Under the pieces are notes generated by a model. The model saw nothing but the letters and a program-made list of their open reading frames with translations. It searched no databases and was not told the DNA's origin. Source: Candidatus Terraquivivens tengchongensis (lineage in GTDB: Archaea > Thermoproteota > Nitrososphaeria_A > Caldarchaeales > Wolframiiraptoraceae). From it: 64,000 bases of DNA. The stretch is from NCBI GenBank assembly GCA_023261845.1, contig JALNJZ010000002.1, positions 1 to 64,000 on the forward strand, written 5' to 3'. Positions 10,510 to 44,002 of the stretch are shown here, piece by piece. A program made the position numbers and the translations under genes. The first letter of the stretch is position 1, and each line of letters starts with the position of its first letter.

Positions 10510-11020
10510 CCTTTCGCCATACTTTTGAGTTGTCAAGGTTCATGAGCTCTTCTATAACACCTTCATTAGACATGAGTAGCGTCAATTCATCATACTTGCC
10601 GTCTATCTCGTTAACACAGGCATCTGGAAAAGACAGGTCTATGGGTATTCTAGTCTTCCAGTAATAGCCATCCTTTACGTTAAGTCTCGTAAAAGTTCCA
10701 ACAAGGTTCTTTTTTAGGGGGAAGTTGAGTACGTTTATTATGAATTCAACAAAACAAATTCTGTACGCTTTTTCGTAAACATCTCCATAAAACGTATTAA
10801 AATAAACGTATAACGGACTGTCTCTAGAATAAGTTTCCCATGTTGTGAATTGCGTATATAAAGGGATCCAGCCTTCGTCCCTTAGCACCATATCCTCAAA
10901 ACTTTGCGGTCTTTTCCAATTACTAACCATGAAACCCCTTTCTTCTAAAGCAGGTATCACATAACGGTGGAGGATGCCTTGCCTGAGCATCTCTATCCTT
11001 TCCTTTAAACTAATTGGCAT
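10502..11020 (-). CDS. Hypothetical protein
   Basis: 172-aa ORF with ATG start filling the gap; no family recognised. Confidence 0.6.
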   Translation of the reverse strand: MPISLKERIEMLRQGILHRYVIPALEERGFMVSNWKRPQSFEDMVLRDEGWIPLYTQFTTWETYSRDSPLYVYFNTFYGDVYEKAYRICFVEFIINVLNFPLKKNLVGTFTRLNVKDGYYWKTRIPIDLSFPDACVNEIDGKYDELTLLMSNEGVIEELMNLDNSKVWRKVI

Positions 11021-19915: not shown

Positions 19916-21364
19916 TTAAACGATGATTTCATGAGATTTTGGGGGATCTATAACTTTGGAGCCTATTCCTTGCTTTTCAAGCAGCCCTTTAAACATTTCA
20001 GGATGTTCTGTGTGTACAGGGATCACCATCTTTGGTGACATCCTTTCAATCGTGCCGATTATCTCACCTTGTGATGCATGACCTGAGGCGTGTACATGCA
20101 CAGGTCGCATACCAAGAAGTTCTAACCAATTGATTACCTTCTCCCGCTCTATTTCTTGCTCTTCATTGTGGGGCTCGCTGGATGAAAATAGAAATATCGA
20201 GCCTGGCTCTGGTCTGATCGAGACAAGCTCAGGCAAATCCTCACTTTGGCATAACGTCAGGATGTACCTGTCTTTCTGCTTAGCCAATTCTTCTGGAGTT
20301 ACGAGGTGCACACCAACATCTTGACATTCTTCTAAGAACTTTCTCAACCAGCCGCGGTAATTTTTTTCAGGTTCGTATCCGCCAGAGCCGCTCGGTTCTA
20401 AGTAAACTGATAGCATATCGTTTGTGAGTTTTGGTACTTGGATGTTTGTTGCTCTTTTTTCGAGACAGTTGATGACGTAGGCTAACTTTGGTGAGAGTGC
20501 TAACTTTCTGTCCGCATATTCGGCAGCGGAAATCAGACTTTTTAGTCTGTCAAAGTCGAGAAGACCTATTAGAGCTACTGCGGCCTTTCCTTGAGTGTCC
20601 TTCAAAGAGTTCTTCATGCTGAGCAGAACACTTTCTTCAGAATGGATTGAAGGGTCGCTTATCCTTGTACCCTCAATTATCAGCACATCTACATCATCCG
20701 CTGATGCATGCTCTATGAAGTCCTCGGTCATTTTACGCATAGGACCGTGTAAGCGGAAATCGCTGGTATACACAACACGAACGTTATCCAACTCGAGTAT
20801 GAGTCCGTAGGACGAGGGGGTCGAGTGGTCCACATGTATAGGGGTCACATTTATGTTTTCTATATTGAGTTTCTTACCAGTTGAAAACGTCTCCATCTGC
20901 CTTTTGAATATCCTTCCATCTCTGTAATCCTTTACCTTGATTATCTGATCTTCTGGTTCTTTGCTTGTCTTAGTTTCTTCCCTTGCCTCCAGCAAAATGG
21001 CTGCTGTTGCTCCAACGTAGAATTTGATATCTGGTCTAAGCAATGAGATGTGTCCACAATGGTCTAGGTGGGCATGCGTGATTATACATGCATCAACAGA
21101 TGGAACGTCGCTCCTCAAGTGATTTAGGTTTCCAAGCAAATCTTCCCGGTATATGCCGGGTAGCTCTGGAAGCATTCCCGTTAAGATATATTCTTCAAGT
21201 ATCCTGAACCTCTTCGCCTTAATAAAACCACCATAAAACTTCCTCTTCGTCGTAAAGCTCGTACCAAAGTCTAGGAAAACTTTTGTCTCATTCGTACTCA
21301 CAAGTATCTTATTGCCGCCTATCTCACCAGCTCCACCATGAACCTTTATGCTAACCAAGGCCAT
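19916..21364 (-). CDS. MBL-fold beta-CASP nuclease (RNase J-like)
   Basis: GEIGGNKI, THAHLDH, DFRLHG, HASGH, PVHTEH. Confidence 0.85.
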   Translation of the reverse strand: MALVSIKVHGGAGEIGGNKILVSTNETKVFLDFGTSFTTKRKFYGGFIKAKRFRILEEYILTGMLPELPGIYREDLLGNLNHLRSDVPSVDACIITHAHLDHCGHISLLRPDIKFYVGATAAILLEAREETKTSKEPEDQIIKVKDYRDGRIFKRQMETFSTGKKLNIENINVTPIHVDHSTPSSYGLILELDNVRVVYTSDFRLHGPMRKMTEDFIEHASADDVDVLIIEGTRISDPSIHSEESVLLSMKNSLKDTQGKAAVALIGLLDFDRLKSLISAAEYADRKLALSPKLAYVINCLEKRATNIQVPKLTNDMLSVYLEPSGSGGYEPEKNYRGWLRKFLEECQDVGVHLVTPEELAKQKDRYILTLCQSEDLPELVSIRPEPGSIFLFSSSEPHNEEQEIEREKVINWLELLGMRPVHVHASGHASQGEIIGTIERMSPKMVIPVHTEHPEMFKGLLEKQGIGSKVIDPPKSHEIIV

Positions 21365-21407
21365 TTAAAACGGGGAGGCAATAATAATTATTTTTTGAGT
21401 CGTTATG

Positions 21408-21666
21408 TTACTCGCTGATCACAAGCATCGTGAGCGTGCTCCTGACCTTATCCAACCTTCTTATCTTCCATGAGACTATTTCCTTAAGCTTGTCCATACT
21501 ATCTGCTTCAACCTTTACTATTACGTCATAAACACCATATACAATAAACACTTCCTTAACCGCGTCTATCTTTCTCAGCTCATTAACCACTTCTTCTTCA
21601 GAACCTTTTGAGCCCCTTATTTTATCGGGGTATCTCAGTGTTCACCAATACAAATGCTTTTGGCAT
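21408..21666 (-). CDS. Stand-alone Lrp/AsnC RAM-domain protein, 77 aa after removal of a 25-nt intron (exons 21666-21632 and 21606-21408)
   Basis: Spliced product MPKAFVLVNTEIGSEEEVVNELRKIDAVKEVFIVYGVYDVIVKVEAD...VRSTLTMLVISE is a complete RAM domain; 35+199=234 nt, in frame. Confidence 0.88.
21607..21631 (-). other. Bulge-helix-bulge intron in an mRNA (25 nt)
   Basis: GAACAC-UGAG-[AU^A]-CCCC-loop-GGGG-CUCA-[AA^A]-GGUUC; contains an in-frame UAA. Confidence 0.85.
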
Positions 21667-21711
21667 ATTTGCTCACGTTATATTTTTTAGTTTTGATGTT
21701 TATAAACGTTT

Positions 21712-22449
21712 TCAAAGCAAGCCGCATGAAGGGCACTCAGGATTCCTTTCGACCTTTACCTCGTAAAACATCATCTCAAGAGCGTCGTATATTAACATCC
21801 TTCCAACGTAGAGCTTTCCTATACCGAGTACGATTTTAATCGCTTCTGTAGCCTGTAACGTAGAGATTGTTCCTGGAACCGTGCCGAGGACTGGGAAACC
21901 CCCTTCTTCTGGTGGCGGTACGGGCACGATGCACCTATAGCACGGCCCTTTGCCCGGTAAAATCGTCATCAGCCTACCCTCATACGCATGCACGGAGGCA
22001 TGAACGAACGGTATTCTCTGAATAATACATGCATCATTTAACGCGTATCTAGTCTTGTAATTATCTTGACCGTCCACCACGACGTTGCATCCTTTTATAA
22101 TCTCGGACACATTCTCCTCGTTTATCTCAACCATTAGAGCCTCTATCGATATCTCAGGGTTTAAGGAGCTCAACCTCTCAGCCGCGACCTTTGCTTTTGG
22201 TTTTCCTAAATCGTTTGTAGTGTACAAAATTTGACGGTTTAGGTTACTGAGCTCGACAACTTCTTTGTCAACCAGCATAAGTCTACCTACACCCGCTGCT
22301 GCCAAGTAAAGAGCCGCTGCGGTGCCGAGGCCTCCAACCCCCGCGACAAGAACCTTCGCGGTCTTCAGTTTCCTTTGACCTTCCACACCGAAGTTAGGTA
22401 ACCTAATTTGTCTGTCGTACCTTTCCAACTCCCTTTCTGTAAACACCAT
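21712..22449 (-). CDS. MoeB/ThiF (E1-like, UbaA) adenylyltransferase
   Basis: RYDRQI, GVGGLG, SNLNRQ, CYRC...CPSC. Confidence 0.92.
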   Translation of the reverse strand: MVFTERELERYDRQIRLPNFGVEGQRKLKTAKVLVAGVGGLGTAAALYLAAAGVGRLMLVDKEVVELSNLNRQILYTTNDLGKPKAKVAAERLSSLNPEISIEALMVEINEENVSEIIKGCNVVVDGQDNYKTRYALNDACIIQRIPFVHASVHAYEGRLMTILPGKGPCYRCIVPVPPPEEGGFPVLGTVPGTISTLQATEAIKIVLGIGKLYVGRMLIYDALEMMFYEVKVERNPECPSCGLL

Positions 22450-43896: not shown

Positions 43897-44002
43897 GGGC
43901 CCGTAGCTCAGCCAGGTAGGGGGTTCCGCCTAGAGCGGTGGGCTCTTAGGTTTGTTAAACGGAGTAACCCATAGGTCGTGGGTTCGAATCCCACCGGGCC
44001 CG
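43897..44002 (+). tRNA. tRNA-Lys(CUU) with two introns (43920-43933 in D-arm; 43949-43966 at 37/38)
   Basis: Cloverleaf restored after removing 14-nt and 18-nt inserts, each with a 4-bp central helix and 3-nt bulges. Confidence 0.92.

Follow-up and report, generated by a model that had tools for sequence, protein, structure and literature searches.

Within the window, a 64,000-nt stretch of the genome of Candidatus Terraquivivens tengchongensis (contig JALNJZ010000002.1, positions 1 to 64,000), a short minus-strand gene at 21408-21666 encodes a protein with the RAM domain known from Lrp/AsnC regulators. Its twelfth codon is interrupted by 25 nucleotides, which in our assessment are very probably a spliced archaeal intron of the bulge-helix-bulge (BHB) type lying within coding sequence. 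The gene and the predicted BHB motif comprise the following parts:

21632-21666, minus strand: exon 1, 35 nt in all, with the ATG at 21666, coding for MPKAFVLVNTE and two letters of an isoleucine codon
21607-21631, minus strand: putative BHB intron of 25 nt, delimited by orthologue comparison, fold and an RNA contig
21408-21606, minus strand: exon 2, with the third isoleucine letter, 65 further codons and the TAA stop (21410-21408), covering the rest of the RAM domain
21601-21643, minus strand: whole BHB motif, as folded by RNAfold
21643-21638 with 21605-21601, minus strand: outer helix, with one bulged A at 21639
21637-21634 with 21612-21609, minus strand: central 4-bp helix UGAG/CUCA
21633-21631, minus strand: 5' bulge AUA
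21630-21627 with 21616-21613, minus strand: inner helix CCCC/GGGG
21626-21617, minus strand: loop of 10 nt
21608-21606, minus strand: 3' bulge AAA

The insert falls inside codon 12; read in frame it gives ATA CCC CGA TAA, and the codons downstream are shifted by +1. A listing of open reading frames (ORFs) returns for the downstream part just one of 60 aa, started by a GTG at 21590 and spanning 21408-21590. The minus-strand sequence, frame shift and in-frame TAA are all found as quoted in an earlier annotation made from the letters alone, hereafter the sequence-only reading. From its 5' end, the insert consists of the third base (A) of the 5' bulge, the CCCC/GGGG helix round its 10-nt loop, the central helix's CUCA strand and the first two 3' bulge bases. 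Because an A stands on both sides, its removal can be placed equally at 21607-21631 or 21606-21630, with the same product.

The 60-aa ORF matches the Lrp/AsnC ligand-binding (RAM) family PF01037 with an E-value of 1.1e-13, and since the match runs from profile position 16 to position 73 of 73, the ORF is without the first strand of the domain. An uninterrupted orthologue of 79 aa matches the same family at residues 6-76, over profile positions 1-72 of 73. A domain search with this orthologue gave PF01037, a related RAM model and nothing else, a helix-turn-helix (HTH) domain included, and NCBIfam regulator models match it by their C-terminal halves only and far below their cut-offs. The predicted product is thus a stand-alone RAM-domain protein of 77 aa without a DNA-binding domain, and too short to include an HTH. 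Its resemblance to Lrp/AsnC regulators and to stand-alone RAM proteins lies in PF01037 being matched over the whole length; the regulators combine an HTH with a C-terminal RAM domain, whereas this gene has no HTH, and its assignment by the sequence-only reading to the Lrp/AsnC transcription regulators does not hold.

The pre-mRNA around the insert folds as a BHB substrate should. In the minimum free energy (MFE) structure of a 56-nt segment (RNAfold, -12.7 kcal/mol), the helices GAAC/GUUC, UGAG/CUCA and CCCC/GGGG and the AUA bulge all appear, and the same local fold is retained in a context of 141 nt. Two 3-nt bulges lie on opposite strands round a 4-bp helix, in the canonical handedness. A BHB motif carries its 5' bulge towards the inside of the central helix and its 3' bulge towards the outside, an orientation with which the cbf5 control described below agrees. 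Set against the strict hBHBh' form, the inner helix has four G-C pairs, invariant in all seven genomes of the genus, while the outer helix consists of one base pair, a bulged A and four base pairs, so that the motif is of the relaxed type that, according to the literature, heteromeric enzymes accept. No Rfam family matched over 21300-21800 at E-values up to 1.

The weight of the case rests on the comparison of relatives and on RNA. The genome under study (14 contigs, 99.4% complete; G000, genus g1 in our numbering) was compared with six congeners, and all seven carry an insert at the same site, of 25 nt in five genomes and 27 nt in two, each copy with an in-frame stop. The loop holds the length difference and most of the substitutions of the insert, and the helices are conserved. 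Outside the genus the site is uninterrupted in 16/16 orthologues, which belong to g5, another genus of the same family, or to the families f2, f3 and f4, and a class-wide sample of 76 genomes agrees. In these 16 orthologues the DNA at the junction, ACTGAGATAGG, is what cutting after the second base of each bulge would produce, and across it they encode FVLINTEIGAEEE. Residues 1-12 of the intron-less orthologues are the counterpart of exon 1, whose changes among the seven congeners are mostly synonymous. Excision by the BHB rule yields an intact 77-aa protein in every one of the seven; the product proposed by the sequence-only reading, running TEI-GSEEEV across the junction, matches both the intron-less orthologues and the RNA contig.

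Over the spliced frame, the ratio of non-synonymous to synonymous differences (pN/pS) lies between 0.00 and 0.07 in all 21 genome pairs; synonymous differences number 12-32 per pair and non-synonymous ones 0-4.5. Purifying selection on the spliced frame is strong, which implies that exon 1 is translated in frame with exon 2 and that the gene is not a pseudogene. The pairing is likewise maintained: 97.8% of cells are paired over 13 pairs and seven sequences, compared with 13-58% when the 3' partner is slid. The central helix reads UGAG/CUCA in five genomes and CGAG/CUCG in the other two, a compensatory change from U-A to C-G whose exon side is the synonymous replacement of ACT by ACC.

Public sequencing runs offer a view of the transcript. 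The stretch or part of it occurs in 19 runs from 10 studies, one of them recorded as RNA; over 21300-21800 we compared, as assembled contigs, two RNA runs (X15 and X21) and two DNA runs (X1 and X7). Run X15 yields a single contig of 690 nt (mean word depth 17.2, three other letters different) that covers 21300-21669 and leaves out 25 letters behind 21606, that is 21607-21631, exactly the predicted intron. The DNA contigs keep these 25 nt, both in X1 (63 kb, identical, and possibly the source of the assembly) and in X7 (15 kb, from another study), whereas X21 has no cover of the interval and is evidence neither way. The expectation that RNA would lack the insert while DNA keeps it is therefore borne out by one RNA contig against two DNA runs. 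From the X15 contig it follows that the joined form is real and prevails in that library's assembly graph, although the extent of splicing is not given by a contig. Together, the fold, the orthologue junctions, the selection on the spliced frame and this contig uphold the central proposal of the sequence-only reading, a BHB-type intron in protein-coding sequence.

The far end of the same contig is unusual, and its description requires the surroundings of the gene:

21699-21706, minus strand: TATA-like box TTTATAAA, identified by reading the sequence, some 33 nt ahead of the ATG and itself preceded by an A-rich stretch
21712-22449, minus strand: ThiF-family gene, the upstream neighbour
19916-21364, minus strand: metallo-beta-lactamase/RMMBL (beta-CASP-like) gene, the downstream neighbour

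The TATA-like box is conserved in 7/7 members of the genus and is probably the archaeal promoter of the RAM-domain gene; a scan for bacterial-type promoters and terminators, whose scope does not extend to archaeal promoters, returned nothing. Past 21669 the contig continues for 30 letters that match 20811-20840 exactly. In the sense of the RNA, position 20811, inside the downstream beta-CASP-like gene, is followed by 21669, which lies 3 nt before the ATG, forming a head-to-tail junction. Such a junction may be what is expected of a circular RNA of 834 nt, of a tandem copy or of a template switch; the circle would span the spliced RAM-domain gene and the first part of the beta-CASP-like gene. 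As 30 letters equal k-1 of the assembler, the contig simply ends there at a branch. A search for a helix or a BHB motif joining the ends of the junction (20811/21669) found none.

Several observations weigh against the intron and are best considered together. The fold put forward by the sequence-only reading stands in its three helices and its AUA bulge and fails in the closing C-G pair of the outer helix, which is absent from the MFE structure; the 3' side there forms a 4-nt loop. The outer helix is imperfect, with a mismatch in two of the seven genomes. Nor is the folding energy exceptional, with z = -1.72 (10 of 200 shuffles as good) for the short segment and z = -0.33 in the 141-nt context. 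The distribution of the insert among orthologues, which that reading had proposed to check, fits an intron, and the covariation it also named as a check is present as one compensatory change; statistically this is thin, being one double change common to two sister genomes, with a score reached by 22 of 500 shuffles. The RNA support is a single assembled contig from one run rather than reads, and its odd head-to-tail end means that the molecule may be unusual or partly artefactual. Finally, motifs of this kind occur at chance frequency throughout the genome. A relaxed BHB scan of both strands of the 1,221,916-bp genome (central helix of 4 bp including no more than one G-U; a pair of 3-nt bulges; inner and outer helices each 3 bp or longer, the outer one with room for one bulged base; intron of 14-150 nt) found 17,385 sites, as against 17,592 decoys of mirrored geometry, which the enzyme should not recognise. 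A filter for a restored long ORF left 91 real sites and 135 decoys, and the added demand that both exons be coding-like by codon usage left 37 and 35, with no separation at either step. The site at 21607-21631 is among the scan sites without standing out, and the motif alone is not evidence.

A genome-wide BHB scan, which the sequence-only reading had recommended for frameshifted coding sequences, does not discriminate true sites from mirrored decoys, and it was dropped as a tool of discovery. What does exceed chance is that the BHB cut sites fall on the ends of an insert that orthologue alignment had set independently; the rate of BHB motifs, about 5e-5 per site and length, is the chance of such a coincidence. 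The case is decided by the comparative and RNA evidence and not by the motif.

Further introns were sought without reference to any motif, by a tblastn comparison in which every stop-to-stop frame of G010 (an intron-less relative, taken whole at 1.439 Mb) was matched against G000. The 2,470 high-scoring segment pairs led to six flagged places, among them three short inserts: the 25 nt in the RAM-domain gene, 31 nt in the gene of aEF-2 and 20 nt in cbf5. Both of the latter lie outside the window:

G000 C2:83949-83979 (L176:150-180), minus strand: BHB-type insert of 31 nt in aEF-2
G000 C8:80370-80389 (L177:171-190), plus strand: cbf5 intron of 20 nt, a textbook hBHBh' motif with an outer helix of 7 bp

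The aEF-2 insert splits the codons of the GTP-binding loop (P-loop), between IIAH and VDHGKTT. Its central helix is GCCC/GGGU and its 5' bulge AUA; the inner helix has 8 bp, and the outer helix is weak and fails the outer-helix criterion of the relaxed scan. It is present in 6/7 members of the genus, at 30-33 nt, and precisely absent in G006; an insert at the same site occurs in 4/4 genomes of family f3, three of them with a compensatory GCGC/GCGU central helix, and the other 19 loci examined have none. These features suggest a BHB intron in aEF-2. In an EF-2 tree, a single-gene tree with weak deep support, genera g2-g4 group together and the intron-less aEF-2 of G006 falls inside g1. The cbf5 insert sits after the first and ahead of the second letter of the catalytic Asp codon, which is the crenarchaeal site described in the account of this intron in PMC2738675. 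It is present in g1 (7/7), f3 (2/2) and f4 (6/6); 12 loci of g2-g5 lack it, as does G010, and its motif pattern was not found in three loci of f2. This intron provides a positive control from within the genome, both for the cut rule and for the splicing of mRNA in the lineage, and the genome counts at least three coding-sequence introns of the BHB type, in the RAM-domain gene, aEF-2 and cbf5.

Second copies of the three introns were searched for in G000, with chance-level matches only; a 17-nt match to the cbf5 intron, at C2:220846, falls within coding sequence and is coincidental. Other places flagged by the comparison were set aside. A flag in a permease-like gene at C12 ~85,880-85,930 (plus strand) is a change of frame near a C/A-rich run beside a TAG, with no BHB, and reflects a frameshift, a sequencing error or a variable linker around ~85,900. 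The flagged matches on C10 are to non-coding frames of a 3.1-kb stretch, 88% identical, that is probably 23S rRNA, and four flags in G010 are low-complexity sequence or the same rRNA-like stretch. Also flagged was C14 ~10,555-10,810 (plus strand), where the gene of a protein of ~1,140 aa has 252 nt, in frame, more than its G010 orthologue.

The RAM-domain gene itself is interrupted elsewhere in other lineages. In genera g2, g3 and g4 the codon-12 site is uninterrupted, and an insert lies instead between SWRI and RRLDKVRS, near codon 60 (loci L103-L112, for example L111:127-188). All ten loci fetched carry it, at lengths of 29, 29, 30, 30, 30, 30, 31, 31, 33 and 39 nt, each with in-frame stops, and a class-wide protein search found the signature of this interruption in 17 genomes of the three genera. 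In its BHB the central helix is GAGG/CCUC and the 5' bulge AUA; the inner helix is rich in G+C and 6-7 bp long, the 3' bulge is A-N-A, and the outer helix again has one bulged base. At this site 98.2% of cells are paired, with one inner pair being U-A, U-G or C-G according to genus, and excision gives intact proteins of 77-79 aa in the eight complete loci. An AU-A 5' bulge, cut between AU and A, is common to three of the four best-defined introns. A third site is tentative, as it is known from a single genome: G035 (genus g10) has, at approximately L271:330-365 on its contig C42, a 29-nt insert between DRLK and EIVSW, near codon 52, with an inner helix of 7 bp and only three of four central pairs. 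The 'stops inside' noted in eight paralogue rows of the class-wide survey were the genes' own stop codons. The suggestion of the sequence-only reading that the lineage might hold more introns of this kind is thus supported by aEF-2, cbf5 and the two further sites in the RAM-domain gene.

The machinery for such splicing is encoded in the genome. Two paralogues of the splicing endonuclease EndA (PF01974) score 105.3 bits (189 aa) and 61.5 bits (183 aa), the 189-aa paralogue having a Tyr/His/Lys-containing segment, and RtcB is present with 578.8 bits. The two EndA genes are located at C2:162.3-162.9 kb and C1:8.7-9.3 kb. ARAGORN models 12 of 35 tRNA genes with introns; for a tRNA gene in the window, at 43897-44002 (plus strand), the model has an odd anticodon call and a 22-nt intron whose position is probably non-standard. 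The pair of EndA paralogues corresponds to the arrangement of broad-specificity heteromeric enzymes, which the treatments of splicing endonucleases in PMC10485636 and PMC2738675 link to relaxed motifs and to cbf5 splicing.

We infer that these enzymes act on the RAM-domain transcript as follows. As the pre-mRNA folds, the UGAG of exon 1 would pair with the CUCA at the 3' end of the intron, flanked by the two 3-nt bulges on opposite strands; the endonuclease, built from the two paralogous subunits, would cut after the second base of each bulge, and RtcB would join the exons. The full domain would be translated from the spliced mRNA only, the unspliced form stopping after 14 codons. The excised intron would presumably be circularised, and splicing is presumably constitutive rather than regulated.

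Other accounts of the locus have to be set against this one. If the insert were disabling, the gene would be a pseudogene, or the 60-aa GTG-started ORF (21408-21590) would be expressed alone, as might be concluded from standard ORF calling, which gives just that ORF, and from an insert that shifts the frame and has a stop. We give this next to no credence: seven species whose DNA is 84-92% identical have kept the insert, exon 1 remains in frame with almost only synonymous changes, the 60-aa ORF lacks domain profile positions 1-15, and the insert is missing from the RNA contig. Scarcely more plausible, and still very improbable, is that the contig reflects something other than splicing, namely an intron-less DNA allele or a hairpin skipped by reverse transcriptase, with the protein made by some means such as ribosomal bypass, as in gene 60 of phage T4. 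There is, after all, one contig from one run; DNA can occur in RNA libraries, the same contig holds another non-collinear junction, and for the aEF-2 intron G006 does offer a precise intron-less allele. Yet both DNA runs compared and all seven assemblies keep the insert, and the match of the contig breaks off 3 nt upstream of the ATG, whereas DNA would have carried on into the promoter. The ends of the deletion are at once the BHB cut sites and the orthologue junction, and a jump of reverse transcriptase would have had only 1 nt of microhomology to use.

With splicing accepted, the intron might in addition be a regulatory gate whose efficiency varies with conditions or with EndA/RtcB activity, similar in concept to IRE1-HAC1/XBP1. 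Unspliced RNA cannot give the protein, a gene of 77 codons has inserts at three sites in three lineages, and the motif-blind comparison of two genomes found only two other coding-sequence introns, a recurrence that suggests a special gene. However, aEF-2 and cbf5 are housekeeping genes that carry the same kind of intron; a BHB intron is therefore by itself no sign of regulation, and gating specific to a regulator loses ground. EndA is a constitutive tRNA enzyme, and no sensor nuclease is implied. The impression of a hot spot is also biased in that, of all genes, only the RAM-domain gene was surveyed in all 76 genomes. We regard a gate as improbable, albeit clearly less so than the two preceding accounts. 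Somewhat better placed, though still doubtful, is the idea that this gene is a genuine hot spot where tRNA-type introns are gained, with independent entry at three sites, and the recurrence does leave room for something special. Conceivable causes are selection for splicing-dependence, as a post-transcriptional gate tied to EndA/RtcB activity, and a preference of some intron-insertion mechanism for this mRNA, for example by reversed cleavage and ligation followed by reverse transcription.

Few precedents exist. The cbf5 pre-mRNA intron of Crenarchaeota was reportedly described by Watanabe in 2002 and by Yoshinari in 2006. In what PMC7714728 and PMC10485636 say of mRNA introns, cbf5 figures as the sole archaeal coding sequence interrupted by a BHB intron, to which the 5' untranslated region (UTR) of HVO_1309 is added as a further case, and the discussion in the latter, a review of 2023, considers more archaeal mRNA BHB introns likely. 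The tRNA introns treated in PMC2738675 range from 11 to 175 nt. For the related Caldiarchaeum, the passages of PMC3082918 on introns cover tRNA and rRNA introns and a heterotetrameric endonuclease and mention no protein-gene intron. In the paper on Ca. Wolframiiraptoraceae (PMC9246946), a family which by its description includes a cultivated member, the words 'intron', 'frameshift' and 'Lrp' do not occur. In the literature searched, BHB introns are not reported from any Lrp/RAM gene or from aEF-2.

A close parallel is the crenarchaeal cbf5 intron as presented by Yokobori 2009 (PMC2738675), likewise a short BHB or relaxed-BHB intron in coding sequence that disrupts the frame or a key codon, in hosts with heteromeric EndA and with lineage-specific gain and loss; G000 has the cbf5 intron as well. 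The present case differs in its host gene, a stand-alone RAM domain, and in its lineage, Ca. Wolframiiraptoraceae (Nitrososphaerota), and inserts at three sites across lineages are not described for cbf5 in the sections of PMC2738675 devoted to it. HVO_1309 of Haloferax volcanii, in the accounts of Schwarz 2020 (PMC7714728) and PMC10485636, is also an mRNA substrate of the tRNA splicing endonuclease, with spliced RNA seen in RNA-seq, as RNA evidence exists here; its intron lies in the 5' UTR and its enzyme is homodimeric, whereas the RAM-gene intron lies within the frame, which splicing is needed to restore. With archaeal tRNA and rRNA introns the present one shares motif geometry, cut rule, size range and presumably enzymes. 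It differs in that the substrate is an mRNA, with no tRNA body to aid recognition, and in that its helix is built partly from codons and so is coding-constrained. The eukaryotic IRE1-HAC1/XBP1 system similarly excises a short intron by a protein endonuclease, independently of the spliceosome, with a change of reading frame and, in metazoa, ligation by RtcB. IRE1, in contrast, is a stress-activated sensor nuclease acting on twin stem-loops, while here a presumably constitutive tRNA enzyme acts on a BHB, so that the likeness is one of logic only.

BHB splicing has been documented for very few archaeal protein genes, and the RAM-domain gene is a second coding target, with RNA evidence. A third is added by sequence in aEF-2, interrupted in the codons of its GTP-binding loop, together with a cbf5 intron in a lineage outside Crenarchaeota and repeated gain within one very small gene. 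Automatic gene calling will shorten such genes or flag them as frameshifted, as with the 60-aa ORF in place of 77 aa here and a split aEF-2. The origin and spread of protein-gene introns in Archaea become directly testable, and if the hot spot is true, this gene family would be a natural system for watching the birth of archaeal mRNA introns.

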